Assembly: GCF_947039875.1 (NCBI RefSeq)
Contig: NZ_CAMRAN010000016.1
Span: forward strand, 3,592-67,591
Length of the DNA stretch: 64,000 nucleotides
Direction of reading: 5' to 3'
Origin: an uncultured Photobacterium sp.
GTDB taxonomy: Bacteria; Pseudomonadota; Gammaproteobacteria; Enterobacterales; Vibrionaceae
In this document: positions 3,986 through 17,961 of the stretch, one piece after another
Layout of the letters: each line of letters opens with the position of its first letter
Numbering within the stretch: the first letter of the stretch is position 1
Notes under the pieces: generated by a model
The model's database searches: none
What the model was told of the DNA's origin: nothing
What the model saw: the letters and a program-made list of their open reading frames with translations, nothing else
Program-made: the position numbers and the translations under genes

Positions 3986-4143
3986 AGTTTTCCCAAAAGC
4001 CGTTGGCTCAATATCAAGTTACTGCAATCCATGACACGCTGCATATCAACTTAATATTTTCTTAAAGCAATACGTTATAAAGCTAAGTATCCCGTAACTG
4101 ACCTAATAGAGGCAAGTTTTTAGGGAAAATAAAGCGTCCCCCT

Positions 4144-4216
4144 CGTCATTCTCTACAGTGAATGCCCAACTCCCCGTCATTCCCTACAGTGAATGCCCGC
4201 GAGGGCGATAGGGAAT
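4144..4216. repeat. Tandem 24-bp direct repeat plus an 8-bp inverted repeat at the left junction of the island
   Basis: CGTCATTCTCTACAGTGAATGCCC (4144-4167) recurs as CGTCATTCCCTACAGTGAATGCCC (4175-4198) with one mismatch. ATTCCCTA (4179-4186) pairs with TAGGGAAT (4209-4216). Confidence 0.6.
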
Positions 4217-4261: not shown

Positions 4262-4917
4262 TGCCGTAAAAGTAAATTCATTATTGAAAAAACGGACTTA
4301 GACCGCATTAAGAGACAACACGTAGGTAAAGCACCAGAAGTAGGAACCCGAGTACCAACGTTTTCAGAACTCAGCATGATTTGGTTGGCTATCGAACGTA
4401 GCCGCGCTAGCTCATCTAATAAAGCGTTGCATCAACTAACCATGTTGTGGGGCAGTGTCTTTCAGAACTGCGCCTTGCTCGTCGTAGCCATTTTGATATG
4501 GAAGCAGGTATATGGACGGTACCGAAAGAGCTCAGTAAAACCAATACGCCAATAAGACGCCCAATTCCCACTAAAGCAAGGGCGATATTAGAGCGGGTAA
4601 TGGCAACTTATGATGATGTGTTGTTCCCTGGTGGTGATCTTGATAAGCCGATAACCATTTCAGCAGCTAACCGTTATATCCGCCGTATAAGAGATGGTTT
4701 ACCCATTGAAGATTGGCGAACTCATGATTTTAGACGTTCGTTATCTACTGGTGCATCAGAACTAGGTGTAATGCCACATGTGGTTGAAAAGATGCTTGGC
4801 CATGAGCTAGGTGGGGTATTAGCTGTTTATAACAAACATGATTGGTTAAAAGACCAGTTAGAAGGGTATGAGCTGTATGCTGAGAAGTTGGATAGTTACT
4901 TTTGTGCTTTCACTTGA
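4262..4917 (+). pseudogene. P4/CP4-57-type tyrosine integrase fragment, lacking its N-terminus and frameshifted
   Basis: One frame from 4262 reads ...VPTFSELSMIWLAIERSRASSSNKALHQLTML. The sequence then continues in another frame from about 4447 as GQCLSELRLARRSHFDMEAGIWTVPKE...HDFRRSLSTGASELG...EKMLGHELGGVLAVYNKHDW, which holds the catalytic R, HxxR and Y region. No N-terminal arm-binding part is present upstream. Confidence 0.8.
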
Positions 4918-5251: not shown

Positions 5252-5434
5252 TTATTTGTCATTTGGATTTTTTTGCTTGTTTGAAATGTGAATAATTTCT
5301 GGGTTCTCGTCTACTTCAGACTGAACGAGATCAATGATATGATCTAAACCAATCTTTAAGTTTTTGAACTTCTTATTTTTTTTCCTAGGAGCCATTTTAG
5401 GTTTCTCTGTGTGTTGCATTTCTATACATGTCAT
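5252..5434 (-). CDS. Small 60-aa protein coupled to the upstream patatin gene; function unknown
   Basis: A GGGAG SD lies inside the last codons of the upstream gene, 8 nt before the ATG at 5434, and the gap is 5 nt. The N-terminal half is basic (KPKMAPRKKNKKFKNLK) and the centre is acidic (SEVDENPE). Confidence 0.5.
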   Translation of the reverse strand: MTCIEMQHTEKPKMAPRKKNKKFKNLKIGLDHIIDLVQSEVDENPEIIHISNKQKNPNDK

Positions 5435-5439
5435 ACTAG

Positions 5440-7320
5440 TTACTCCCTATTTTGCTTTGTGCCTATCTCTGCTGAAAATTCACTAATTGCTGTAGAAGCG
5501 ATGTAGCAGTACAAAGATAGTATAGAAGCATTGAAGTTATGCTCGTAAAGTGCATTAATCACATCCCTACTATCATCGTATAAAAAGTAATCGTCAAAAT
5601 CAATGGCCAGTACTGCTTTAGGTTTTATATTGTGCTTTGTAATTTCAGAAAAATTTATTAAATGCTCATCCAATTTATTAGTGCTGCCGTGAATAACCCC
5701 TTTCTCATTTAGCTCTCTTATACTAAAGATAGGAATTGTTATGATAACTTTCAATCCTTTCTTTACAAGAGCATTTCGATTAGTACTCATTGATAGAGAA
5801 TCTTTCATATGGCGGGTTAAATGGGTGCCACTTGGAACATAACTTTTATTGAAGTCAGGTAGGTAAATCATTGGTATCCCTGTATTGAGACAAATACCTG
5901 ACGCTCCTTCTAAACTATCAAACTCAAGATAACGATCTAGATCGTTGTCCATATTGTAATGGTAAACGATCTTGCTTGTATTCAGATTATGGTCTACTGA
6001 CGCAATCAAGCAAGCTCTAGAGTTTTCAAGATTGCCAATTATTCCCCCCCCATATTGAATAAATTGTGTTAATACTTTTGAATAAGCTGTAATGAATGAG
6101 TGGCTAATATCCTGTAACCAGTTTCGTGCGCTTCGTTTTGGGAAAAGAGCATAGTTGTCAATTAACGAATCTCGAGTTTGATTGTAGGCATTATTGTAAA
6201 GTTCAAATACATCATTTTCCTTAAGTGAAAATGAGAGGGTTTTTACTGGACCTGTATCAATCTTTATCAGATCCAGTCCTTTAACACTGATATTCTCTAT
6301 AGAACTGGCTCCCCACAGTGCTGTAATTGCTAAATTTTTGAAATATGTTATAGGATTGTCAACATCTTTTCTAATCCGGAGTGATGGAGATAATTTGACA
6401 CCGATTGTATGCTTCAGGTCATCTAGAAGTAGGTGCTTTCTATAGCTCCAAGCTGGAAAATTACTCAGCATCCCACCATCAACGAATTGATAAATATTTC
6501 CATTTATTTCAATTTTTTTACATTTAAAAAATAATGGTATGGAAATACTTGCTAAAATTCCATCTATTACTTTAACGTTCTTAGTTAATTCGTTTTCATG
6601 GGAAAAAATTGTAATTTCACGAGTGCTAATATCAGATGAAATTAGTTTTAAGTGAAGGTTACTTATCTTAAACAATTGATCAAACGTTAGATCTTTGGCC
6701 TTAATAGATGCAGGCGCAGATGTTAAAAGAGGGGAGTCTTGGATTATCGTCTCAAGCCATTTTTCAATAGATTTTGTAGATAACAGCCCAAAACCCCACA
6801 TAACAAATGTTGCCGGTATAATCGTTGGTATGATAATTATCAAGAAAGATACTATTGTTATGGAAGCAAAAGCTGCTCTGAGAAATTTTCTAAGATAAGA
6901 TAACGAAACCTTTTTGCTAAGATTAAAAGCTATTATAGAAATTGAAAAAGTAAGTACTATATACAGTAGGATTTCAAAAGATACAAAATATACCAAAGCA
7001 GAATAAGGTAAAATAAAGATGGTAGCTATCTTTAAAAATAACGTAATATAATCTTTTAGTGAGCTGAAAATTATCGTTTTTAAATTATGTGGAAGTTTAC
7101 CTTTTTTAGTTTTTGGATTATACAAGTCATCTGCACTGTATCCTAACGCTATCATAGTCGCTATGATAGATCCTGCTGATGTGCCTGCTAATTTATCTAC
7201 TCGTAAGTTATATTGTTCTATAGCCTTAAAAGCACCAATATGAGCGATACCCTTAGCGCCACCCCCTTCAAAAACAGCATTACAAAACATTTTTAATATT
7301 AACTTCTTAGTAATATACAA
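5440..7320 (-). CDS. Patatin-like phospholipase with inserted TM helices and a GAF-like C-terminal domain
   Basis: The oxyanion motif FEGGGAKG, the nucleophile elbow AGTSAG (Ser48) and the catalytic Asp motif VDGGMLSNFP are all present. Between the Ser and Asp motifs lie hydrophobic stretches (ATIFILPYSALVYFVSFEILLYIVLTFSISIIAF; ASITIVSFLIIIIPTIIPATFVMWGFGLL). The last ~200 aa show a GAF-like strand pattern (RACLIASVD...IVYHYNM...EGASGICLNTGIPMIY...VIITIPIFS...AVLAIDFDD). An alternative start exists at 7290. Confidence 0.85.
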   Translation of the reverse strand: MYITKKLILKMFCNAVFEGGGAKGIAHIGAFKAIEQYNLRVDKLAGTSAGSIIATMIALGYSADDLYNPKTKKGKLPHNLKTIIFSSLKDYITLFLKIATIFILPYSALVYFVSFEILLYIVLTFSISIIAFNLSKKVSLSYLRKFLRAAFASITIVSFLIIIIPTIIPATFVMWGFGLLSTKSIEKWLETIIQDSPLLTSAPASIKAKDLTFDQLFKISNLHLKLISSDISTREITIFSHENELTKNVKVIDGILASISIPLFFKCKKIEINGNIYQFVDGGMLSNFPAWSYRKHLLLDDLKHTIGVKLSPSLRIRKDVDNPITYFKNLAITALWGASSIENISVKGLDLIKIDTGPVKTLSFSLKENDVFELYNNAYNQTRDSLIDNYALFPKRSARNWLQDISHSFITAYSKVLTQFIQYGGGIIGNLENSRACLIASVDHNLNTSKIVYHYNMDNDLDRYLEFDSLEGASGICLNTGIPMIYLPDFNKSYVPSGTHLTRHMKDSLSMSTNRNALVKKGLKVIITIPIFSIRELNEKGVIHGSTNKLDEHLINFSEITKHNIKPKAVLAIDFDDYFLYDDSRDVINALYEHNFNASILSLYCYIASTAISEFSAEIGTKQNRE

Positions 7321-7495
7321 TAATTCGCTGCATCATACATTGATATGGGATGTGTTGCAAAGGGAGATGGTTTTAGTACAAGTTCAATTTAATACACTGT
7401 TGTGTGTAATTTCAGTCTCAATAATAACTATTTATTATTAAAAGGATTTTTATTAGTGGTAAGCTATTAAAACTTTAGTTTATGGGGCTGATACG

Positions 7496-7705
7496 ATGGG
7501 TAATTATAGTATTACTTATGCGATTTATAATCCTAGGTGGGTATATGGAGTCGATGAAAAACTTTTAAAAATAGGTTCTTCTGAAATTGCACCTGAAGAT
7601 TATGAGCAATACATGCATGGTTCGATATTTTGTCCTAAGTGTTTTACTCCCTTATCAAGGAACCCATCGAAAAAGAATATATCAAAAAATGCTAAAACAA
7701 CATAA
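7496..7705 (+). CDS. 69-aa ORF with a CPxC element, possibly the N-terminal stub of a truncated gene
   Basis: MGNYSITYAIYNPRWVYGVDEKLLKIG...IFCPKCFTPLSR ends about 60 nt before the integrase 3' remnant. The SD is weak. Confidence 0.3.
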   Translation: MGNYSITYAIYNPRWVYGVDEKLLKIGSSEIAPEDYEQYMHGSIFCPKCFTPLSRNPSKKNISKNAKTT

Positions 7706-7767: not shown

Positions 7768-7808
7768 CAGTTAGAAGGGTATGAGTTGTATGCTGAGAAG
7801 CTGGATAG
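7768..7808 (+). repeat. Second copy of the integrase 3' end (a remnant of another integrase gene)
   Basis: Positions 7768-7808 match 4855-4895 at 39 of 41 bp. They read QLEGYELYAEKLDS then a stop soon after. Both differences are synonymous Leu codon changes (CTG/TTG). Confidence 0.75.
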
Positions 7809-7895
7809 CAATATAAAATAGATTTATCATTGATTGGATATGTAATTTATTTGGTATAAAATTGGTTTTAATTAAATATTACAAGTGGTTAAAAG

Positions 7896-9929
7896 ATGAA
7901 TGCTATAATTGAGACCAATATTATAAGCGACACTATAGTATTATCACAAATTGATAAAACCGTTAATTTTAAAAATTGTCTTGGAGTTTTTCAAGGTGGT
8001 GGATGTAAAGCTCTTGCGTTTGTTGGGGCTTATGGAGAAGCTAAATCTCGCGGTGTCAATTTTTCTGAAGTAGCGGGGACATCTGCTGGATCAATATTTG
8101 CTGCATTGATAGCTGCTGGTGCAACGCCTCAGTATATGGAAAATTTAATAAAGGATATTGACTTTAATAGATTTAATCACCCTATAGATAAGAATTTATC
8201 AAACAAATATGGATTTAATGAATATAAATATTCTCGAAAAATAGCAGGAAGGCTTTTTAAAAAAAATAAGATAATATCTAATATTCTAAACTTTGTAGAT
8301 AATATTGGTCTGTTTTCATCTGAAGAACTAGATCTGTGGTTAAATGATGAATTAAAAACTCTTTTAAATATTGAAAATAAAACAGTTACTTTTAAAGATT
8401 TAAAAATACCTCTTCATGTGATTGCGACTGATCTTATTAAAAAGAAGCAAAAGATTTGGAATGAAAATACTCCAGATGTTTCAGTCGCGTATGCTGTTCG
8501 CTGCTCTTGTAGTATACCTTTATATTTTCAGCCTGTTAATATGGAGTTTGTTGATGGGGGGTTAGTGAGTAACTTACCTTCATTTTCTTTAAATAATGGA
8601 GTAGGGCATTTTGAAAAAATATTATGCTTTACTTTGAGTAGTAAACCAGAAGAAATTAAATGTATAAAAACTTATTTAGAAAGTATTGCAGGCTCTGTTG
8701 TTGATGGTGCAATTCAAATACAAGAAACGCTTCAATATAATACATATAATATTAAAATTAATGATTTACCAGTTACAACAACAGGATTTGAAATTCTTAC
8801 TCCTGAGTTAATTCAAGATACTATTTCTATAGGTAAAAGAGCTGCAGCAGAATTTTTTAACGATGAAACAACTAAAATAAGTGAAAAAGAAGATATATCA
8901 ACACCAAAATTAACCAAAGATTATATTTTGAATTCGGTTGTTATGGAGGATGTAGATTGTCATAATCATATATATATGTGTTTTAATGATACAAAACATA
9001 TATATGGATTATTTCCTACAATATTGAGTTGGTTGGTTGAAAAAAAGATCAGAATAACATTTATAACTAGGTATATTAAAAATATTACAACTGATCATGA
9101 TAGTGTTTTGCATGAAAAATATCGAAGAAAACTAATTGAAAGATTTGGTATTCATTTAATTGAGAGAGAATCTATTCCTTTTGATGCATTTATATTTGAG
9201 GGTGATTACAAATATAATGATAAGGCGATATTCCTTTATGATAAAGACGACTTAGAATTTAATATAGGACATGGTGCAATATATGATGGTAAATATAACT
9301 TACATATCATATCATCATTAATAAAAATGTTAAATTTGACAGATAAAGATAAAAAAAATCATGACCTTATCATATCTAATTTAAAGAACTTTACTATTGA
9401 AAAATGTTCAAGTAAACAGCATATAAGAAAGCTAAAGAATGTACAGCAATACAAAGGAAAAAATGTTTCAATTAAAGAAATAAAACTTAATCTTTCTAAT
9501 GTTAAGTTAATGACAAAATATGTTAAATCATATAAGTACAACCAAATAGATAAGCTATATGAAATATTAAATAAAAACGGAATTTCATTATTTGATTACT
9601 CAGTAATAACTTTTTCTGATGGTTTACAGTTTTTAATTACACCTATTATTGTAGAAAAGCATGGAAATGATTATATTGTAATAAAAGGGAATAGTCGTTT
9701 AAATTATGCGTATAGAGAGTTAGAGTTAAATGGATATTTTAGTGCGGTTGTAGCTAATAAGGTATCAATTAACTTACCATCTATCGGATGCTATCCTACT
9801 TCAGATTGTATTATAACTACTATAAATAAAGAGGGATCAACCCGATATGAAAACTGGAGTTATCGCAATTTTAGACGTGTTGAAGAAACAATAAGAAATC
9901 CGAGTGATTTTTTAGAGGAGGAGATTTAA
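7896..9929 (+). CDS. Three-part fusion protein: patatin-like phospholipase, unknown middle domain, ParB/Srx-like C-terminal domain
   Basis: The N-terminus has FQGGGCKA, AGTSAG (Ser63) and VDGGLVSNLP. Residues ~340-520 carry no motif I recognise. The C-terminus reads ITPIIVEKHGNDYIVIKGNSRLNYAYRELELNG, matching the ParB N-terminal/sulfiredoxin-fold pattern (hydrophobic strand, Y-x-h-h-x-G-x-x-R). Confidence 0.85.
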   Translation: MNAIIETNIISDTIVLSQIDKTVNFKNCLGVFQGGGCKALAFVGAYGEAKSRGVNFSEVAGTSAGSIFAALIAAGATPQYMENLIKDIDFNRFNHPIDKNLSNKYGFNEYKYSRKIAGRLFKKNKIISNILNFVDNIGLFSSEELDLWLNDELKTLLNIENKTVTFKDLKIPLHVIATDLIKKKQKIWNENTPDVSVAYAVRCSCSIPLYFQPVNMEFVDGGLVSNLPSFSLNNGVGHFEKILCFTLSSKPEEIKCIKTYLESIAGSVVDGAIQIQETLQYNTYNIKINDLPVTTTGFEILTPELIQDTISIGKRAAAEFFNDETTKISEKEDISTPKLTKDYILNSVVMEDVDCHNHIYMCFNDTKHIYGLFPTILSWLVEKKIRITFITRYIKNITTDHDSVLHEKYRRKLIERFGIHLIERESIPFDAFIFEGDYKYNDKAIFLYDKDDLEFNIGHGAIYDGKYNLHIISSLIKMLNLTDKDKKNHDLIISNLKNFTIEKCSSKQHIRKLKNVQQYKGKNVSIKEIKLNLSNVKLMTKYVKSYKYNQIDKLYEILNKNGISLFDYSVITFSDGLQFLITPIIVEKHGNDYIVIKGNSRLNYAYRELELNGYFSAVVANKVSINLPSIGCYPTSDCIITTINKEGSTRYENWSYRNFRRVEETIRNPSDFLEEEI

Positions 9930-10612
9930 TGAACAATTTAAGTTATTTAAATTTTATTTGTAAAAAAAATCCTAATATAAACATATTGAGGGTTTTTGAT
10001 TTTTCTTTTTCCAATAAATTTCAAGAAATAAATGAAGAATTAACTGTAGATGAATTTGAAGCTGTAAAAAATTGTATAAAATATAAAAATAAATATGATA
10101 TGAGTTTTTGGGAATCATTATTTATATTAATGAAAGAAGGGCAGACTGTTAGTAAAAGAATGCTTAATCATTCAATTTTTCATAATGAGAATAATAAATA
10201 TATTAATATTAAGCGTGATGATTTTTTTGATTATATCAAAACTGATATTGATGGTAATGTAGCATTAAATTCTAAAGTAGTACTTAAAGATGGAACTGTA
10301 ATGCATATTCCAATGTTAGACTTTAAAATACCATCAAATAAAAGTAATTTAGACATTGTTCATAATGTTATTGAAATGTTTAACTTAGATGGATTAATAC
10401 TTAATAGTGGAAAGTCTTTTCACTTTATTGGATTTGATTTGATAACTGAAAATGATTTAATTAATCTACTTTCTAAGTTTATTCTTCTTCACCCTATCTC
10501 AGATAAAGCTTGGGCTGCTCATCAAATAATTGAACGCTCAGCTTCATTAAGAATATCAAAAAAATATGGTAAATATCCGTATTTAATGGAAAGTAAAATA
10601 AATCTATCTTAG
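9929..10612 (+). CDS. 227-aa protein of unknown function, translationally coupled to the patatin-ParB gene; motif spacing resembles primase-polymerases
   Basis: Its ATG overlaps the upstream TAA (TAATG) and a GGAGGAG SD sits 7 nt upstream. The C-terminal half contains HIPMLDFK, then about 30 aa, LNSGKSFHFIGF, then about 30 aa, LLHPISDKAW. The AEP resemblance is an inference only, because the DxD motif is incomplete. Confidence 0.75.
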   Translation: MNNLSYLNFICKKNPNINILRVFDFSFSNKFQEINEELTVDEFEAVKNCIKYKNKYDMSFWESLFILMKEGQTVSKRMLNHSIFHNENNKYINIKRDDFFDYIKTDIDGNVALNSKVVLKDGTVMHIPMLDFKIPSNKSNLDIVHNVIEMFNLDGLILNSGKSFHFIGFDLITENDLINLLSKFILLHPISDKAWAAHQIIERSASLRISKKYGKYPYLMESKINLS

Positions 10613-10664
10613 ATTATTTTAAAAATTTAAACCAAAGCGATCTCTCACCAAGATCGCTTTGTTT

Positions 10665-11006
10665 CTAAAACCGCTTTCCAAACCGACTGGTATTATCTTT
10701 CCATTCTTCAACTGCAGAACGTAACCAACGTAAGGGCATGAGTGTAATTGGTTCAGGGAAGCCACGTGTTTGTCGCCACTTATAAATTGTTGCTCGACTT
10801 GTGATTTGAAACATTTCTAATACTTCAACGTGACTAATTAAAAGATGCGTTGATTGCTCATTAAGTTCAGCATAAGTTTTTGCTGGTGGCGGTGAATATC
10901 GGTAGTTGCTTTGTTGTTTACTTTTGTAGTGTGACGGTGTCACGTTTAAGTTGTTTTCTGTGGCATAAGAAATATTTACAGTAGGGTAGCTGTTGTAATC
11001 GAACAT
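10665..11006 (-). CDS. AlpA/Vis-family phage-type helix-turn-helix (HTH) regulator or excisionase-like protein
   Basis: The C-terminus (LISHVEVLEMFQITSRATIYKWRQTRGFPEPITLMPLRWLRSAVEEW) is the typical AlpA HTH. I prefer the start at 11006 (MFDYNSY). Confidence 0.75.
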   Translation of the reverse strand: MFDYNSYPTVNISYATENNLNVTPSHYKSKQQSNYRYSPPPAKTYAELNEQSTHLLISHVEVLEMFQITSRATIYKWRQTRGFPEPITLMPLRWLRSAVEEWKDNTSRFGKRF

Positions 11007-11016
11007 GTTTGATTCC

Positions 11017-11172
11017 TTATTGGCATGTTGTACTAACAAAATTAGAAAGACGAACCCGATTCATGGTGTGCCAGCAACGGGCATCACCTTTAAATAAGCC
11101 TCCCGTCTTTAATTTTGCACATCCTTCCGGTAATGACTCACCACAATGTTGGCAAGTATCTAATGAGCTCAA
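11017..11172 (-). CDS. Possible 51-aa Cys-rich (zinc-ribbon-like) ORF just upstream of alpA
   Basis: A TTG start gives LSSLDTCQHCGESLPEGCAKLKTGGLFKGDARCWHTMNRVRLSNF. The stop lies 10 nt before the alpA ATG. I saw no ATG start and no clear SD. Confidence 0.3.
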   Translation of the reverse strand: MSSLDTCQHCGESLPEGCAKLKTGGLFKGDARCWHTMNRVRLSNFVSTTCQ

Positions 11173-11371
11173 ATAAATAACTCTTTATTTTTAATTGGTT
11201 AGGTTCTTCTGGGCGCTCAGAAACCGCAAACGAGTCAGACTCTCGGGAAATAAAAATTTTCTGGCCTTCTTAGCCACCACCGAGGTTGGTGATTAAGTCC
11301 ATTTTCGGTGGTGAAGGGCTGAGCGTGATGCGTAACGCTTATCTTAAATATAATTTACTTGCCATCATCCG

Positions 11372-11442
11372 TTTAGCCATAAACGGCTAAATTCTAACAA
11401 TTAGCCAGATATAGCTAAATTACGAAAGAAAATTATGGCTAA
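11372..11442. promoter_or_regulatory. Cluster of TTAGCC-N6-GGCTAA-type palindromes (candidate operator or iteron set)
   Basis: TTTAGCCATAAACGGCTAAA (11372-11391) is a perfect 7+7 palindrome. TTAGCCAGATATAGCTAA (11401-11418) is imperfect. A further GGCTAA half-site lies at 11437-11442. Confidence 0.4.
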
Positions 11443-11467
11443 TATGAATCAACTCTATTTAATTGTA

Positions 11468-11534
11468 CTAATGAGTAAGTAATTACACATTAAAGTGTTT
11501 AATCCTCATTAATGTGTATTAAATTACTCATTAA
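11468..11534. repeat. Imperfect 26-bp inverted repeat (a long hairpin or cruciform candidate)
   Basis: CTAATGAGTAAGTAATTACACATTAA (11468-11493) faces TTAATGTGTATTAAATTACTCATTAA (11509-11534), separated by a 15-nt spacer. Confidence 0.5.
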
Positions 11535-11712
11535 TACTTTAAATAAGTAATTGGTGTATTTTTATTGTGGGTGTTTGAATCATCAGATGTCGCTTGATGG
11601 TTGGGTGTGATGCGTAACGTGGTTTAAATATGAAGGGAATATTGATTTAAAGGATATAAAAAAAGGCAACTCAAGACACAAGATTCTGTGTATTAAATCA
11701 CCTTTTATTCGG

Positions 11713-11856
11713 TTAGCAAATGGCTTGCTTTTTTTTCTCACCGGATAATTCTGGTGCAGATGTTTTGTATTTATTCGACATTAATGTTTTAGCATTTTTT
11801 AAGAGTAGACTACGCATGTCTTGAGCCGATAAACGCTTAGTTTTTGTTTTGTTCAT
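11713..11856 (-). CDS. Possible 47-aa basic small protein
   Basis: A strong GGAGGA SD precedes the ATG at 11856. The product is MNKTKTKRLSAQDMRSLLLKNAKTLMSNKYKTSAPELSGEKKKQAIC. It lies downstream of the 178-aa gene on the same strand. Confidence 0.35.
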   Translation of the reverse strand: MNKTKTKRLSAQDMRSLLLKNAKTLMSNKYKTSAPELSGEKKKQAIC

Positions 11857-11924
11857 GGTTCCTCCAACTCATTCTTATATGGTTGTATTATAGCCTAACT
11901 AAAAGTAGGAATGAAGATTTAAGT

Positions 11925-12461
11925 TTAATTCAACAATTCAGCTAATATACGCTCTTGAGCGGCCTGTAATGACTCATAGCTTGCATACATTGCTACATTT
12001 GCATCAGATGTCGCCTCAAAGCCAAATTGTTCATAATGTTGGATAAGATCTTGGTGTGGCTGGACAACATATGCACCAACACTTTCTTCTCTTAATGCAA
12101 GAAAGTAAGTGGCTGCGATGACGACTAGTGTTGTTAGTCTTCCATTCAGAGGGTGAGTTCTATTATTTCTGACCAGTGATTCAATTAAGAAAATATGTAA
12201 TTGGCCATCTGATGCAGCATAAATACCAAGCATTGCGCCATCAATGTCTAATTCAGATACTAATCGAAATCCTAAATGAAAAGAATCTTCATGTAAGTAA
12301 TGCCCATGCATAGCAAGCCAATTGAGGACGGTCCGATCATCTCGAACGAGTGCTTCAAAGTCATTATCAGTTAGGCTTTGAACACTAAGACCTAAATCAA
12401 CTTGATCAATAAATTGTTGTAAGAATGAAACCGTTTCTTGAAGGTCTTGTTGTATAGTCAC
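11925..12461 (-). CDS. Hypothetical protein with a GNAT-like acetyltransferase fold (tentative)
   Basis: The 178-aa product has LHIFLIESLVRNNRTHPLNGRLTTLVVIAATYFLA (an R-x-x-G-x-like segment) and a C-terminal QHYEQFGFE, reminiscent of GNAT motifs A and B. Confidence 0.45.
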   Translation of the reverse strand: MTIQQDLQETVSFLQQFIDQVDLGLSVQSLTDNDFEALVRDDRTVLNWLAMHGHYLHEDSFHLGFRLVSELDIDGAMLGIYAASDGQLHIFLIESLVRNNRTHPLNGRLTTLVVIAATYFLALREESVGAYVVQPHQDLIQHYEQFGFEATSDANVAMYASYESLQAAQERILAELLN

Positions 12462-12648
12462 TGATTGATCCTGATATGACGTTTTAATATTAGTATTATA
12501 TTGAGGTTATGTTGGCATGAATCGCCAATAATGATGGAAACAGCACCTTTATCTAAATACCTTATAGAGGTGCACAGTTTTACGTGACCACTTTAGTCGT
12601 GAGTGTGCTGGCTGTCGTAATTTATTGAGCGACTATAAATATAGTTAA

Positions 12649-13671
12649 TTATTCTTTCATTGATGAATTATGTAATTTAGTCGGGGGATTACCCGTCCAA
12701 CGTTTAAATGCACGAGAAAAGCTGCTCAATTCAGAAAAACCTAATTGATAAGTTATTTCTGTCATGCTTATTTCTGGTTTTTTTAATAGGCGAATAGCTT
12801 TATTTAAACGGTAACAATCAAGAGTACTTGTAAAGCTTGTATTAACACTTGCAAGACGCCGAATTAGGGTACGAGGACTTATGTGTAGTTGTTGAGCAAC
12901 ATAATTAGCATTAATATCTTTTAGAGATTTACATTGCTCAAATATATTACAAATTTGTAAGCAAATATCACTTTTTTTCAAATTTTCAACACGTTGATGT
13001 ACAAAGGTTAAATTATGATAATGTATTTCAGGGTGATAATTTTCAACTGTTGGAATGAGATCTTTTTCTTTAAAGGTTAGTTTTATGACTTTTTTGTTGA
13101 TTAATTTTGTACAATTGTACCTCTGCTTTAAGTAATTTTTTTCACTTTCATTATAGTTTAGATCTGGCGCATATAATTGAAATGGAATGGCTTTTTTATT
13201 ATTTAAATTCCGCATCATTTCTAACAAAGTGCAGATAACAATAATATAGCCTGATTTAGTTACACGAGAGTCTTTTGGGAAAGGGTTTTGAATGAATATG
13301 ATTTCAATCTCATCATTGTTTTGATTAAGTGATAAATTTATTTGTGGTGCGATATAAATGAAATTATCACAAGTAATCTTTAGGAAATCATATAATGAGC
13401 GACATGTAGAAAGAGCAATGGAATAACATCCAAAAGTGAAAGGAGTAAAATGTTTTGCTGCTTGAATTGACATTTGAAAATTTTGGTCATTTTCAATGAG
13501 TTCAGAATGAAGCATTCGTAATAAACGAATGTCATATTCTCCCTCATCATTCGCTTTAATATTTTTATAAGATTCTGCTATTTTTATATTGGATTCATTT
13601 GTTTGCGCTGTAAGGATCGTATACCAACCGGCATGTAAGAAGTAATGATTAGTGTTTTTGTTGCTGAGCAT
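12649..13671 (-). CDS. AraC-family transcriptional regulator
   Basis: The C-terminus has the double HTH (ISPRTLIRRLASVNTSFTSTLDCYRLNKAIRLL...MTEITYQLGFSELSSFSRAFKRWTGNPP). The N-terminus is a ~230-aa putative ligand-binding region. Confidence 0.85.
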   Translation of the reverse strand: MLSNKNTNHYFLHAGWYTILTAQTNESNIKIAESYKNIKANDEGEYDIRLLRMLHSELIENDQNFQMSIQAAKHFTPFTFGCYSIALSTCRSLYDFLKITCDNFIYIAPQINLSLNQNNDEIEIIFIQNPFPKDSRVTKSGYIIVICTLLEMMRNLNNKKAIPFQLYAPDLNYNESEKNYLKQRYNCTKLINKKVIKLTFKEKDLIPTVENYHPEIHYHNLTFVHQRVENLKKSDICLQICNIFEQCKSLKDINANYVAQQLHISPRTLIRRLASVNTSFTSTLDCYRLNKAIRLLKKPEISMTEITYQLGFSELSSFSRAFKRWTGNPPTKLHNSSMKE

Positions 13672-14530
13672 TTTGTTAACCTTAGCACTAATAGTTAATC
13701 AATCATTAAAATAGTCATCTTTTTGTGTGACCTATTTTAACAATTCTATTAATTATTGTCGATGAAGTGGGTCACAACTTGGTCTAATGTCGAAAATTGA
13801 CAACCATATGGCATTTTTTGTCAATGATGATCGGTTCCTGATTAACGATGTTATGTTTATTTATCAAGATACTAGCACCTTATTTATTAATAAAAGGTCA
13901 CCCAATGACTAATTTAATGCTGGTAGATTAAATAATGTAAGGTGAATTGCTTTATATGCATTATAAGTAAAGGAATATATTACATGTAAATAAGGTTAAT
14001 TATTAAATGTAAGGTGTTATTTTGACATTTTAGGACACTTACTTATCTATAACTGTCATGAAAAATAAAATGAGATATAAGTCATAGTTAATATTTAAGT
14101 GTTATGTTTATATGTTGATAGATATTTAATTTTAAGTGATATGTTTAAGGGGGGATAATAATGATCTTCAAATAATTTAAGGGTTTATAACTGTGGTTTT
14201 TTGCTATTGCGGAATAAGGTACGTAGTGAAAATGCTCTCAAATAAATAATGAATCTAAAAGTGTTGTGTAAAGCTAAACAATAATTTTGTCTACATAACT
14301 ATTTATATAATCGATATAGAACAATAACTTACTACTAAAGTTTAATTCGTACAGATAATTTCAAATCTAATCCTAAAGTAAAAAATAAAGCTCTTAAATT
14401 ATAAAGATTTAAGTGTTTGATATTATAAGTAATATAGGGGAGCGCTCTCAGGAAATGGTTTTAAATTGACGGTGTAGATTATAAGTAACGAATAGTTTTT
14501 TCATTAATAAAATAAATAAAAGAGTGTTTT

Positions 14531-15808
14531 ATGAATAAAATAAATACGGTATCTATGCTAGACGCGGTGTCTAAAATAAAATCAGGTGATCGTCTGTGGG
14601 TTAGCGGGGCTATTGGTATTTCTTATGAGTTTTTAACGACTCTTGAAAAAATGAGTTCAGAGCTTAAAAATGTTGAAATAATCAGTGGAATGATTTTAAA
14701 CCCTAAACAGGAGTTTATGTCTCCAGCATATAAAGGTCGAATTTACTATCGAAGCCTTTTTTTAGGCCCCTTGGAACGTGTAATGCGTCCTTTAGGTAAT
14801 ATGGAATTAAATACGACTCATTACAGTAGTATGAAAGATTTATTTTTAGAATTAAAACCAAATGTTGTGGTGCTAGAAGTTTCTCCGCCAAATGAGGACG
14901 GGTTTTGTAGTTTAGGGCCAATTGGTGGATTAGGTTCTCAGTTAATGGCGAGCTATGCAAATAAAGTTATTTTGGTCATAAATGAAAATGTACCGCATTG
15001 CGGCGGGTATCGTAATTTTATTCATATTGATAAAGCCACAACAATCACTACATCAAAGCTCCCATTAATTGCAATTCCAACTGAAACAGTAAGTGATATT
15101 GATACTCAAATTGGGGAAATTGTTGCTGATATTATTGATGATGGATGTACGTTACAAATCGGTATTGGTTCAATTTCTAATGCTGTTGGTTATGCATTGA
15201 AAAAAAAGAAGAATATAAAGATTCATACTGAAATGCTAACTAGCTCAATGGTTGAGTTAATTCAAGCGGGTGCAGTAGATCCAACCGTAAATGTCACTTG
15301 TACTTTAGCAATGGGAGATCAAAACTTATTAGATTATTTGAAATCAGCAGATAATTTAGTTATCGAACCATGCTATGACGTTACAGACCCATATATTGTC
15401 TCTAAGCATGATTATTTTACCTCTGTTAATACTTGCATTGCTGTTGATTTAACGGGGCAAGTCACTGCCGAAGGTATGGGGTATAGACAAATATCCGGGA
15501 CGGGAGGGGCATACGATTTTGCTCGTGCAGCGAAAATGTCCAATGGTGGAAAATCTATTATTGCGCTTAAATCAATGTATACCAACAAAGAAGGTAAATT
15601 AGTTTCAAATATTATGGTGGGATTTCCTGAAGGTACACCAATTACTTATTTACGTTCAGATGTTGATTATATTGCAACAGAATACGGTATTGTACGTTTG
15701 ATGAATAAGTCATATGAAGAACGAACCAAATTATTAATCAGTATTGCTCACCCTGATTTACGTGAATCCTTAAAAGACGAAGCAATCAAAAGTGGTTTAA
15801 TTCATTAG
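14531..15808 (+). CDS. Acetyl-CoA hydrolase/transferase-family CoA-transferase (4-hydroxybutyrate/short-chain acyl-CoA transferase-like)
   Basis: The 425-aa product contains LQIGIGSISNAV, IHTEMLT (the catalytic Glu context) and ISGTGGAYDFARAA (the GxGGxxDF motif). Confidence 0.85.
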   Translation: MNKINTVSMLDAVSKIKSGDRLWVSGAIGISYEFLTTLEKMSSELKNVEIISGMILNPKQEFMSPAYKGRIYYRSLFLGPLERVMRPLGNMELNTTHYSSMKDLFLELKPNVVVLEVSPPNEDGFCSLGPIGGLGSQLMASYANKVILVINENVPHCGGYRNFIHIDKATTITTSKLPLIAIPTETVSDIDTQIGEIVADIIDDGCTLQIGIGSISNAVGYALKKKKNIKIHTEMLTSSMVELIQAGAVDPTVNVTCTLAMGDQNLLDYLKSADNLVIEPCYDVTDPYIVSKHDYFTSVNTCIAVDLTGQVTAEGMGYRQISGTGGAYDFARAAKMSNGGKSIIALKSMYTNKEGKLVSNIMVGFPEGTPITYLRSDVDYIATEYGIVRLMNKSYEERTKLLISIAHPDLRESLKDEAIKSGLIH

Positions 15809-15867
15809 AATTCCTAAGTGGAGAGATGATGTTCTTTCCATTTCATATTACATATAAGGATATATTT

Positions 15868-17961
15868 ATGTTGTTTAATGGTGCTCATTTTAATCTTGCT
15901 CTTGGTGAGAGAAATATTGCTATTTTAGATTTTTTTTCCCCTGCTCGCTTAATGTCAAAAGCTGTTATCGTAGAATTAAATGATATCTTGGATCAATTAC
16001 TTTTTGAAAAAAATATCAATGGATTAGTCATTACTACATCGACAGAGAATTTCGCTTTTGGGGCTGACATTCATGAGTTCTTGCCATTATTTAAAGGTGG
16101 CGCTGGAGAACATTTAGCTTATACACATTCTGTTTATAATAAATTAGAAGATCTTCCATTTCCAACAGTCACTATTATTAAGGGTCACTGTTATGGTGGA
16201 GGTGTCGAGTTTTCCCTTACTAGTGATTTCCGTCTTGGAACCCCTAATATTTCAGTTGGTTTTCCTGAAGTTAAGATTGGTATTTTCCCTGCCATGGGTG
16301 GGGTTACTCGTATGCCTCGTCTTATTGGTCTTGATACATCGCTTGCTTGGCTAACTTCGGGACGAAACTTTAAAGCTGAAAATGCATTAAAAGATGGTTT
16401 TGTAGATGGTGTCGTTGAAGTTGAAGACTCAATGACTGCTGCGATTAATTTGATCACAGAATGTTTAGATAATAAACGTGATTACATAAACATTCGTGAG
16501 AAGAAAAAAGGGAAAATATCTCTTTCAGCTTATGAATTACAAATGTCTATTGGTGTTGCTAAAGGAATGATAGCGAAGGCGGCTGGCCCTAATTATCCTG
16601 CACCAATGACAATCATAAAAGTGATTGAAGAATCAGCGAATCTTGGACGTAAAGAGTCTTTAGAAAATGAAATTACAGGTGTGGTTGAACGTTTAATTAA
16701 TACCGGCCACTCAGCAGCTATGTGTCATATGTACTTAGCTGATTTAGCTGTTAAGAGTAAAGCAAAAAAACTAGCGGGTGATAAAACTGTGGAATGTGCC
16801 GTTATAGGTGCAGGGATTATGGGAGGAGGGATTGCATATTCTAATGCGATCAAAGGTATTCGCTCACCATTAAAGGATGTTAATCAAACAGGGCTAGATC
16901 TTGGTTTAAGTACGGCAGTTAGTTTACTTGAAAAACCAGTCAAGCGTGGAAAAATGGAGTTCAAAAAAGCGGCGACGGCACTGAATAATATCATTCCTAC
17001 ATTAACATACGACTCTTTACAACAAGCCGATATGGTAATTGAAGCTGTTGTTGAAAACCCTAAAGTGAAGAGTATTGTTCTAAAACAATGTGAAGATGCA
17101 ACAAAAGAAAATACAGTTATCGCATCTAATACATCGACAATAAGTATTACCCAGTTAGCCTCATCTCTTGATCATCCCGAGAATTTCATTGGTATTCATT
17201 TCTTTAATCCAGTAAATAAAATGCCTTTAGTGGAAGTTATTCGTGGAGAGAAAACCAGCGATGAAACAGTGAAAAAAGCCGTTACATATGTGAATCAAAT
17301 TGGAAAAACACCCATTGTTATTAATAATTGTGCGGGCTTTTTTGTCAACCGTATATTAACGCCTTACATGCGGGCTTATTCTAATTTATTAGCGAAAGGT
17401 GTGGATTTTAATTTTATTGAAAACACAATGAAAAAATACGGTATGCCAATGGGACCTGCTGAGTTAATTGATGTTGTAGGTATGGATACTTCAGCTCATG
17501 TGCTTGAACTTATGTCACAAAGCTATTCACATATGCCTCAACCTGAAAATAATATTGTACAAAGACTATTTGATAACAATATGTTAGGTCGTAAAAATGG
17601 TGAAGGTTTTTATCTTTGGTCAACAGATAAACGTGGTCGTCCGGTAAAAGAAATAAATGAGAAATCATTGACGTTATTTAAGAGTGTAGGAAATCTAGAA
17701 TTAACGGAGGAGCAAATTACCAATGCGCTAATCTTACCGATGATGTTTGAAGCTAGACGAGCACTCAATGAAGGCATTATCGCATCTAAAGAGGAAGCCG
17801 ACTTAGCAATGATTTATGGTACTGGTTTTCCACCATTCCGCGGTGGTTTAGTCTATCAGATGGACAAGAAAACGCTTGAAGAGCTCCAGCAAGAGGCGGC
17901 CGAAATGTCAGAAGTTCTTGTTGATGACATTACATATACTGTCCCTGAAATGCAGGCTTAA
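15868..17961 (+). CDS. fadB: Fatty-acid oxidation complex alpha subunit paralog (enoyl-CoA hydratase / 3-hydroxyacyl-CoA dehydrogenase)
   Basis: The N-terminal crotonase part has FAFGADIHEF and GHCYGGGVEFSL. The central NAD-binding motif is VIGAGIMGGGIA, followed by the HFFNPV motif. The alignment to FadB starts at MLFNG (ATG 15868, AGGA SD); the long ORF begins at 15826. Confidence 0.9.
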   Translation: MLFNGAHFNLALGERNIAILDFFSPARLMSKAVIVELNDILDQLLFEKNINGLVITTSTENFAFGADIHEFLPLFKGGAGEHLAYTHSVYNKLEDLPFPTVTIIKGHCYGGGVEFSLTSDFRLGTPNISVGFPEVKIGIFPAMGGVTRMPRLIGLDTSLAWLTSGRNFKAENALKDGFVDGVVEVEDSMTAAINLITECLDNKRDYINIREKKKGKISLSAYELQMSIGVAKGMIAKAAGPNYPAPMTIIKVIEESANLGRKESLENEITGVVERLINTGHSAAMCHMYLADLAVKSKAKKLAGDKTVECAVIGAGIMGGGIAYSNAIKGIRSPLKDVNQTGLDLGLSTAVSLLEKPVKRGKMEFKKAATALNNIIPTLTYDSLQQADMVIEAVVENPKVKSIVLKQCEDATKENTVIASNTSTISITQLASSLDHPENFIGIHFFNPVNKMPLVEVIRGEKTSDETVKKAVTYVNQIGKTPIVINNCAGFFVNRILTPYMRAYSNLLAKGVDFNFIENTMKKYGMPMGPAELIDVVGMDTSAHVLELMSQSYSHMPQPENNIVQRLFDNNMLGRKNGEGFYLWSTDKRGRPVKEINEKSLTLFKSVGNLELTEEQITNALILPMMFEARRALNEGIIASKEEADLAMIYGTGFPPFRGGLVYQMDKKTLEELQQEAAEMSEVLVDDITYTVPEMQA

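Follow-up and report, generated by a model that had tools for sequence, protein, structure and literature searches.

A predicted membrane-anchored patatin phospholipase with a GAF domain and a coupled mini-protein gene in Photobacterium: a candidate two-gene conflict module

Introduction

Patatin lipases act as membrane-destroying effectors in the cyclic-oligonucleotide-based antiphage signalling system (CBASS) and as secreted toxins, where their activity requires a signal or a host cofactor that is encoded separately. The patatin phospholipase A (PLA) enzymes ExoU, VipD, CapV, and CapE become active only once a cofactor or ligand has ordered the active site; before the partner binds, that of ExoU and VipD is disordered or occluded. 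This work concerns a two-gene cassette in a stretch of 64,000 nucleotides from an uncultured Photobacterium sp. of the Vibrionaceae (RefSeq assembly GCF_947039875.1, contig NZ_CAMRAN010000016.1, positions 3,592 to 67,591 of the forward strand), hereafter the window. The cassette encodes a patatin-like phospholipase of 616 residues and, directly downstream, a mini-protein of 60 residues. The architecture, in which a membrane-anchored patatin domain is joined to a C-terminal GAF domain and coupled to the mini-protein gene, is well supported.

CapV and CapE of CBASS share with the window lipase the patatin fold (Foldseek E-values of 7e-11 to 2e-10) and the motifs GGGxK/RG, GxSxG, and DGG. They also share the logic of an inactive lipase that is switched on against the membrane of its own cell, which for the window lipase is suggested by analogy. 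However, there are significant differences between the two. CapV and CapE are soluble proteins of approximately 300–360 residues without transmembrane (TM) insertion, GAF domain, or mini-partner, whereas the window lipase possesses all three. According to the titles of their PDB entries, it is the patatin-domain protein to which the ligand binds, leading to filament formation. Moreover, their operon contains a CD-NTase cyclase, whereas none is adjacent to the lipase gene in any examined locus; in agreement with the initial annotation of the window, neither a cyclase nor another signal generator is found among the window neighbours or in the eight homologous loci. The window lipase scores 37 bits against the NCBIfam model CBASS_lipase (cutoff 200) and matches the PADLOC Phospholipase effector model only partially (52 bits, profile positions 52–189 of 331). 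Lacking a cyclase and scoring far under the curated cutoffs, the window lipase is, as judged from these profiles, not a CBASS effector. The identity 'DS2_1_antiphage' was also considered and rejected: it denotes the lipase of a CBASS-DAC system, and the window lipase scores far under its cutoff.

ExoU (ubiquitin), VipD (Rab5), and PlpD have the catalytic fold in common with the window lipase, and exoU is followed by a small gene, spcU. However, these three proteins are virulence factors secreted by the type III, type IV, and type V secretion systems (T3SS, T4SS, T5SS) with different C-terminal domains, whereas the window lipase has no secretion apparatus and carries an internal membrane anchor and a GAF domain instead. 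Type II toxin–antitoxin (TA) and abortive-infection modules are likewise compact and bicistronic, reside on mobile elements, and combine an enzyme that may be lethal with a small partner that is partly disordered. Compared with type II TA modules, the partner here has no recognisable antitoxin or DNA-binding domain, and the putative toxin has its own sensor domain.

Another group of relatives comprises the uncharacterised patatin-GAF proteins of approximately 500 residues annotated as NTE family or RssA-like. They are homologous to the window lipase over the patatin and C-terminal domains and possess the same invariant residues R425, D452, P520, and D564. Several of them reach the Pfam GAF gathering score, and most have a coupled small open reading frame (ORF) downstream. 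However, many are without the hydrophobic insertion, some have an N-terminal HAD phosphatase instead, their small ORFs have no detectable similarity to the Vibrionaceae partner, and their contexts are mostly housekeeping. Literature searches returned no functional work on these proteins and no paper on a patatin-GAF fusion, a TM-inserted patatin, or this mini-protein.

Gene start and catalytic domain

The coding span of the patatin gene agrees with the initial annotation, but its start does not. The mechanically called ORF, 7320..5440 on the minus strand, encodes 626 residues and opens with a TTG at 7320. The N-termini of the database homologues are all M-x-C-N (M-x-C-N-x-V-F-E-G-G-G), corresponding to the ATG at 7290. 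Since every homologue starts in this way, the ATG at 7290 is the true start, the protein has 616 residues, and the nucleophile previously numbered S48 becomes Ser38. The database protein P0001 is 100% identical to this 616-residue product. In addition, a sigma-70-like sequence at 7360–7332, which is a consensus match only, would leave a TTG start at 7320 without a leader.

Pfam Patatin (PF01734) matches residues 16–290 of the window protein with 99.1 bits, compared with a gathering cutoff of 27.7. Conservation was assessed in family alignments of 15 close homologues and of 45 wider homologues. The motifs GGGAKG, GTSAG, and VDGG, which had been recognised in the initial annotation, are intact and invariant within the family. 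In the glycine-rich oxyanion-hole motif, G9, G10, G11, K13, and G14 are invariant among the 15 family members, and G36, S38, and G40 of the nucleophile elbow are invariant across the 45 sequences. An AlphaFold2 (AF2) model of the lipase, built from the 45-sequence alignment, has a predicted local distance difference test score (pLDDT) of 90.4 and a predicted TM-score (pTM) of 0.88. It displays the patatin alpha/beta fold, with Foldseek matches in the PDB to PlpD, CapE, CapV, VipD, and patatin at E-values of 1e-11 to 1e-7; ExoU is matched as well. The best match of the full model is PlpD (E 1e-11, TMt 0.72). Judged by these motifs and profiles, the gene product is a patatin-like PLA with an intact Ser–Asp dyad, and lipid acyl-hydrolase activity is predicted.

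Hydrophobic insertion

An evenly hydrophobic insertion of approximately 90 residues sits between the catalytic Ser and Asp. Its position, between the nucleophile elbow and the catalytic Asp, is one that we take to be the lid/cap location of patatin-fold enzymes. The Ser–Asp spacing is 232–246 residues in the insertion-bearing clade (235 in the window lipase), compared with approximately 172–190 (about 184) in the TM-less patatin-GAF relatives. Because of this shorter spacing in the TM-less homologues, the hydrophobic stretch pointed out in the initial annotation is a true insertion. Comparable insertions occur in many relatives of approximately 540–600 residues from other phyla.

Two hydropathy scales place the hydrophobic maximum in this region. 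Kyte–Doolittle 19-residue windows of at least 1.6 are confined to residues 91–136 and 145–181 in the 626-residue numbering, with a maximum of 2.56, and Eisenberg 21-residue values of mean hydrophobicity (⟨H⟩) of at least 0.68 are confined to residues 82–125 and 137–172 in the 616-residue numbering, all inside the insert. The AF2 model contains three long helices at residues 78–102, 105–127, and 131–163 (616-residue numbering). The Eisenberg ⟨H⟩ of the three segments (H1, H2, and H3) is 0.58–0.79, and their helical moments are 0.26, 0.09, and 0.12, respectively. Because of their low moments, H2 and H3 are hydrophobic on all faces and not amphipathic. Across the 15 homologues, hydrophobicity and length remain at TM level in the three segments, and the hydropathy of the insert is kept but its sequence is poorly kept. 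The mean frequency of the top residue is 0.36–0.40 in H1 and H2 and 0.54 in H3, compared with 0.66–0.75 in the catalytic core. The turn between H1 and H2 is short and without charge, and the linker between H2 and H3 (residues 127–142) is strongly basic (+5.2/-0.2 summed) and amphipathic (helical moment, muH, 0.51). Within H3, Pro155 is near-invariant, and W165, F167, and G168 form an invariant W165-x-F167-G168 motif in the same 15 homologues.

The AF2 model and the hydropathy thus reproduce the three helix-length stretches of the initial annotation, but three complete membrane passes do not hold, because Ser38 and Asp271 would then fall on opposite sides of the membrane. More likely, going by the sequence, H1 and H2 form an in–out–in TM hairpin, H3 is a proline-kinked re-entrant or half-spanning helix, and the remainder of the protein is cytoplasmic.

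GAF domain

In the AF2 model, the C-terminal region of approximately 230 residues is a GAF domain, which suggests small-molecule binding; the order of its secondary-structure elements is that of the GAF fold, an antiparallel sheet flanked by helices. When the full model is compared with the PDB by Foldseek, all matches of non-patatin type at E ≤ 0.1 are GAF domains, with probabilities of 0.92–1.0. These matches include the GAF-cAMP structure of Lcd1 (5w10, E 4e-4), NreA, the GAF domain of PtsP, SA1058, and NitrOFF. Furthermore, 13 of the 45 aligned homologues have Pfam GAF matches, and in the aligned region three of them score above the gathering threshold of 22.4 bits (P0130, 29.3; P0033, 26.1; P0055, 25.4). 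The C-terminal 242 residues of the window protein match P0130 directly in phmmer. The GAF-like C-terminus, which had first been proposed from its pattern of hydrophobic strands, is therefore borne out by the structure matches of the AF2 model and by the homologues that pass the Pfam threshold.

The C-terminal domain contains EGASGICLNTGIPMIYLPD, which we take to be the usual GAF signature G-x-x-G-x-v-x-x-t-G-x-P. In all three alignments, which together comprise more than 70 sequences, R425, D452, P520, and D564 do not vary; other conserved residues of the domain are E456/F457 and E461/G462. The invariance of the four residues points to a conserved ligand or interface. A phmmer search with the C-terminal 242 residues against 1.84 billion representatives returned the lipase's own family and P0130 only, and this single-sequence search gave no evidence of a GAF domain of the same type fused to other effectors.

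Partner gene

At the junction of the two genes (...AAT AGG GAG TAA ctagt ATG), the patatin stop and the start of the small ORF are separated by a 5-nt gap (ctagt), and the Shine-Dalgarno sequence of the small ORF lies inside the patatin end, exactly as initially described. A small ORF is present in 8/8 distinct Vibrionaceae loci, where it starts at -20 to +10 nt relative to the patatin stop, and the position is retained in distant loci too. The partner is a real gene, conserved beyond chance. Between the window and the Vibrio parahaemolyticus locus L081, the nonsynonymous divergence (dN) of the partner is 0.19, with the synonymous divergence (dS) saturated.

The partner is hydrophilic, and its N-terminal 25 residues are basic, with a net charge of +6 in the window and +4 to +6 across the Vibrionaceae family. 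They are followed by a single amphipathic helix at residues 30–43, the invariant N44–P45, and a polar tail. In the AF2 model of the partner, the helix at 30–43 is confident (pLDDT approximately 91) and the tails have low confidence, so that the N-terminus is probably disordered. A profile search of 5.8 billion proteins placed the partner in 9 clusters only, all unnamed or hypothetical. The clusters with a named source are from the Vibrionaceae, and those with a checkable locus adjoin this patatin clade, as in the case of member J7X56_004594, which adjoins the patatin gene J7X56_004593. The partner has no match in Pfam, PADLOC, NCBIfam, or PHROG and belongs to no known antitoxin family; its sequence contains no signal peptide or lipobox.

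Among the 19 distant patatin-GAF genes, with or without the TM insertion, 14 are likewise followed by a coupled small ORF, compared with 103 of the 713 control ORFs (14%). Here, coupled means a same-strand ORF of 50–100 residues starting at -30 to +20 nt from the stop, and the controls are the other large ORFs of the same loci. Two further distant cases were independently called as genes (63 residues in L104 and 77 residues in L105). GC contents at the first, second, and third codon positions (GC1/GC2/GC3) of the distant small ORFs are coding-like and follow those of the adjacent patatin gene. All of these ORFs are hydrophilic and K/R/E-rich with a helical segment, and their presence is independent of the TM insertion. 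A hidden Markov model (HMM) of the Vibrionaceae partner has no match beside the distant homologues, and an all-against-all phmmer comparison of the distant small ORFs gave no significant links. By these comparisons, they are alike in position, size, and character only, and a common ancestry is unproven.

Distant relatives

Among the matches listed in a scan of genome contigs, only distant relatives appear; the Vibrionaceae clade was found by a search for the encoding contigs. A few distant relatives sit on viral or prophage contigs. The phage collection contains no homologues, plasmids contain remote homologues only, and BFVD contains generic viral patatins only.

Meanwhile, repeated links to nucleotide metabolism are observed among TM-less relatives (P0018, P0024, P0034, P0038, P0049, P0055, and P0091; L001, 9740–10858; L005, 7407–7994 and 9686–10222). 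They comprise N-terminal HAD-phosphatase fusions, a gene for a fusion of dCMP-deaminase and NT5C directly downstream, and flanking genes for P-loop proteins resembling nucleoside monophosphate (NMP) kinases. From their recurrence in gene fusions and neighbourhoods, these links may be a clue to the class of the GAF ligand.

Proposed function and alternatives

The reading that we prefer, and to which we give about an even chance, is a two-gene conflict module of abortive-infection or TA-like type, in which the GAF domain and/or the mini-protein would restrain the lipase. It is proposed because patatin PLA enzymes depend on a cofactor, because a lipase situated in the membrane of its own cell needs to be kept in check, and because the Vibrionaceae context is mobile and resembles defence islands. 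In this mechanism, a horizontally mobile module would supply the lipase together with its translationally coupled mini-protein. The insertion in the lid/cap region would anchor the lipase in the cytoplasmic membrane, with the active site at the bilayer surface and both ends in the cytoplasm, and the GAF domain and/or the mini-protein would hold the lipase inactive. The trigger would be a shift in the ligand state of the GAF domain or the loss of the presumably labile mini-protein, for example during phage takeover. The released lipase would then hydrolyse the phospholipids of its own inner membrane, whereby the infection would be aborted or a cell free of the element killed.

The close family is rare and patchy, with approximately 16 clusters, and 5/8 distinct Vibrionaceae loci are cargo of Tn7-like elements or CRISPR-associated transposons (CAST) or of integrase islands. 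The V. parahaemolyticus copy is Tn7-like cargo beside an SMC-like DUF3584/MksE/DUF7281 cluster and a BrxR-family WYL regulator, and the V. mediterranei copy is also Tn7-like cargo. The Enterovibrio copy lies between tnsC and tniQ of a type I-F3 CAST, near a SIR2 protein of 1261 residues. The V. campbellii copy lies in a P4-type integrase island with AlpA, VapE, BrxR, and HNH genes. Besides the small ORF, no neighbour is conserved in any locus examined, close or distant.

Two of these loci provide further observations. In L081, the SMC-like cluster at 10132–16636 (-) consists of four genes, encoding a DUF3584 protein of 1255 residues, a protein with a weak MksE match, a protein of 413 residues, and a DUF7281 protein; it may be a divergent variant of Wadjet/Mks type. 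In the locus of Enterovibrio sp. ZSDZ35 (L087, 5549–9435), the patatin-GAF gene, the mini-ORF, and a helix-turn-helix (HTH) gene are situated inside the transposition and targeting array and not among the usual downstream cargo, and the SIR2 gene is located after the cas genes.

In the window, the tract of the cassette is low in GC (0.27–0.32, compared with approximately 0.39 elsewhere). Two copies of a 41-nt direct repeat, 95% identical to each other, bracket a 2.9-kb block comprising the patatin gene, the mini-ORF, and a 69-residue ORF. The repeat encodes the integrase C-terminus QLEGYELYAEKLDS, and this arrangement suggests tandem or nested island insertions. A second patatin gene lies at 7896..9929 (+), and its position next to and divergent from the first cassette is as initially reported. 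Because the repeat brackets the first cassette, the two patatin cassettes are probably separate acquisitions.

Several observations weigh against a conflict module. The window protein itself has no Pfam GAF match (PF01590/PF13185) at E ≤ 0.1. In PADLOC, NCBIfam, and PHROG, no defence family is found beyond generic partial patatin matches. Most distant relatives sit among housekeeping genes (uvrA, gdh, cobT, bioB, accBC, etc.) with no mobile element in sight, and three of the eight Vibrionaceae loci (L088, L089, and L096) have housekeeping neighbours with no recognisable mobile element. In addition, PADLOC did not recognise the SMC-like cluster of L081 as Wadjet (no model match at E ≤ 1e-5), and its likeness to Mks/Wadjet is by Pfam names only.

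The housekeeping contexts and the lack of a matching defence model would also suit a physiological enzyme, that is, a membrane-bound lipase or lysophospholipase for remodelling or recycling inner-membrane lipids, adjusted to a metabolite that its GAF domain senses. The small protein would then be an accessory or serve in assembly, and the copies in the Vibrionaceae would only hitch-hike on mobile elements. The GAF domain would accord with this role, as GAF domains classically sense metabolites. However, such an enzyme is hard to reconcile with the rare and patchy close family, the carriage on mobile elements, the direct repeat around the cassette, and the BrxR and SIR2 genes as neighbours. The atypical composition likewise argues against it, both in the low-GC tract of the window and in L030, where the GC3 is 0.41 and the locus GC is 0.60. 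We consider a physiological enzyme unlikely, although it is the strongest of the alternatives.

Less probable still is a pure TA-like addiction module that stabilises the transposon or island, with the lipase as toxin, the labile mini-protein as antitoxin, no role in phage defence, and a GAF domain that only dimerises or autoinhibits. The tight operon of two genes with a small, partly disordered partner and the carriage on Tn7-like elements and integrase islands would fit such a module, and a gene with a SocA/Panacea antitoxin domain is present near one distant homologue. However, the small protein lies downstream of the putative toxin, has no DNA-binding domain, and is in no known antitoxin family, and the invariance of R425, D452, and D564 in more than 70 diverse sequences argues for a ligand or interface over a passive GAF domain. 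Moreover, many TA systems act in phage defence, so that this explanation overlaps with the preferred one.

A phospholipase effector exported against other bacteria or a host, with an immunity protein or chaperone, like Tle/Tli of the type VI secretion system (T6SS) or ExoU–SpcU, is very improbable: the order of a phospholipase gene and then a small gene resembles effector–immunity or effector–chaperone pairs, and ExoU and VipD are structural neighbours, but no secretion-system genes occur in any examined locus, the catalytic domain begins from residue 1 with no secretion signal and no PAAR/MIX/VgrG-type domain, the hydrophobic helices within the chain would retain the protein in the membrane of the producer, and the small protein is without the signal peptide or lipobox expected of a periplasmic immunity protein.

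A bolder form of the conflict-module reading, which we regard as doubtful, is a self-contained anti-phage abortive-infection system that extends well outside the Vibrionaceae. Sensor (GAF) and effector (lipase) would be combined in one membrane-embedded polypeptide without a signal synthase. The GAF domain would monitor a housekeeping or phage-made nucleotide or metabolite, and the fast-evolving mini-protein would be a labile brake or a decoy for phage inhibitors, so that the two together would guard metabolite pools and host translation. The sensing of a nucleotide or metabolite is suggested because of the hints from relatives with HAD-phosphatase fusions and with NT5C, dCMP-deaminase, and NMP-kinase-like neighbours.

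Features of the cassette and neighbouring genes

The coordinates of the cassette, of the repeats, and of the partner genes in the homologous loci are collected in Table 1.

Table 1. Positions of the features of the patatin-GAF cassette in the window, and lengths of the partner in the Vibrionaceae loci (positions given for L087 and L096 are those of the respective locus).
Feature	Position	Strand	Remarks
Patatin-TM-GAF phospholipase gene	5440..7290	-	616 aa from ATG 7290; Pfam Patatin 99 bits; homologue starts
Gly-rich oxyanion-hole motif G-G-G-A-K-G	7249..7266	-	Residues 9-14 of the 616-aa protein
Nucleophile elbow G-T-S-A-G, Ser38 (S48 in 626-aa numbering)	7171..7185	-	Motif conservation
Hydrophobic three-helix insertion	6781..7059	-	Residues ~78-170; without counterpart in TM-less homologues
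Catalytic Asp motif D271-G-G (VDGG)	6472..6480	-	Invariant in 45 sequences
C-terminal GAF domain with flanking long helices	5443..6138	-	Residues ~385-616; Foldseek, Pfam matches of homologues
Shine-Dalgarno sequence AGGGAG of the small ORF	5443..5448	-	Within the final codons of the patatin gene; 8 nt before the ATG
Coupled partner gene, window	5252..5434	-	60 aa; recurs in Vibrionaceae loci, N-P motif
Partner, V. parahaemolyticus (L081-84)			63 aa
Partner, V. mediterranei (L085)			59 aa
Partner, Enterovibrio (L087)	7887-8057		56 aa; absent from gene calls
Partner, A. fischeri (L088)			61 aa
Partner, V. vulnificus (L089)			58 aa
Partner, V. campbellii (L091)			59 aa
Partner, metagenomic (L096)	9868-10044		58 aa; absent from gene calls
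Left copy of 41-nt direct repeat	4855..4895	+	Inside the 3' end of truncated integrase ORF 4447..4917
Right copy of 41-nt direct repeat	7768..7808	+	Intergenic, just upstream of patatin-2

The second cassette, at 7896–10612 (+), encodes a protein of 677 residues with an N-terminal patatin domain (90 bits) and then a protein of 227 residues resembling archaeo-eukaryotic primases (AEP; primase fold, PF24387), the ATG of which overlaps the stop of the second patatin gene by 1 nt. The C-terminal region of the second patatin protein, approximately 430 residues, has no Pfam match above the gathering score (a weak Ybfg_C match at 239–289) and no sequence match in the PDB. The second cassette has no match in PADLOC or PHROG. 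Its two genes could form a further candidate pair for defence; alternatively, the AEP-like gene could be the replication gene of the island.

On the other side of the first cassette, the integrase remnant adjoins sbcB and comprises the C-terminal 156 residues only. Between sbcB and this remnant, at 4141–4198, there are two 27-nt copies, 93% identical and 31 nt apart, which may be an attachment (att) site or an element resembling repetitive extragenic palindromes (REP). Inside the repeat-bracketed block, the 69-residue ORF (7496–7705, +) contains a CPKC half-zinc-ribbon motif; it is called as a gene in public assemblies and is not kept beside the patatin-GAF homologues elsewhere. Downstream of the second cassette lie genes for an AlpA/excisionase-like HTH protein (10665–11039, -) and for a protein of 178 residues that matches phrog_4350 (11925–12461, -). 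Membership of the island in the PICMI satellites was considered and rejected: the int/AlpA/primase-like content is similar, but the island has a truncated integrase, an integration site other than fis, and a primase of a different type.

Conclusions

In contrast to the patatin effectors of CBASS and the secreted patatin toxins, the module would need no signal or cofactor encoded elsewhere, having a predicted membrane anchor in the lid region, a GAF domain as its own putative sensor, and the conserved mini-protein. If the patatin-GAF lipase and its mini-protein constitute a defence or addiction system, they would represent a new sensor–effector logic, possibly with direct metabolite sensing, and a new class of regulator of approximately 60 residues. 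A function could then be assigned to the widespread annotations as 'NTE family protein'. Meanwhile, the putative membrane-inserted lid may serve as a model for the access of patatin enzymes to substrates in the bilayer.

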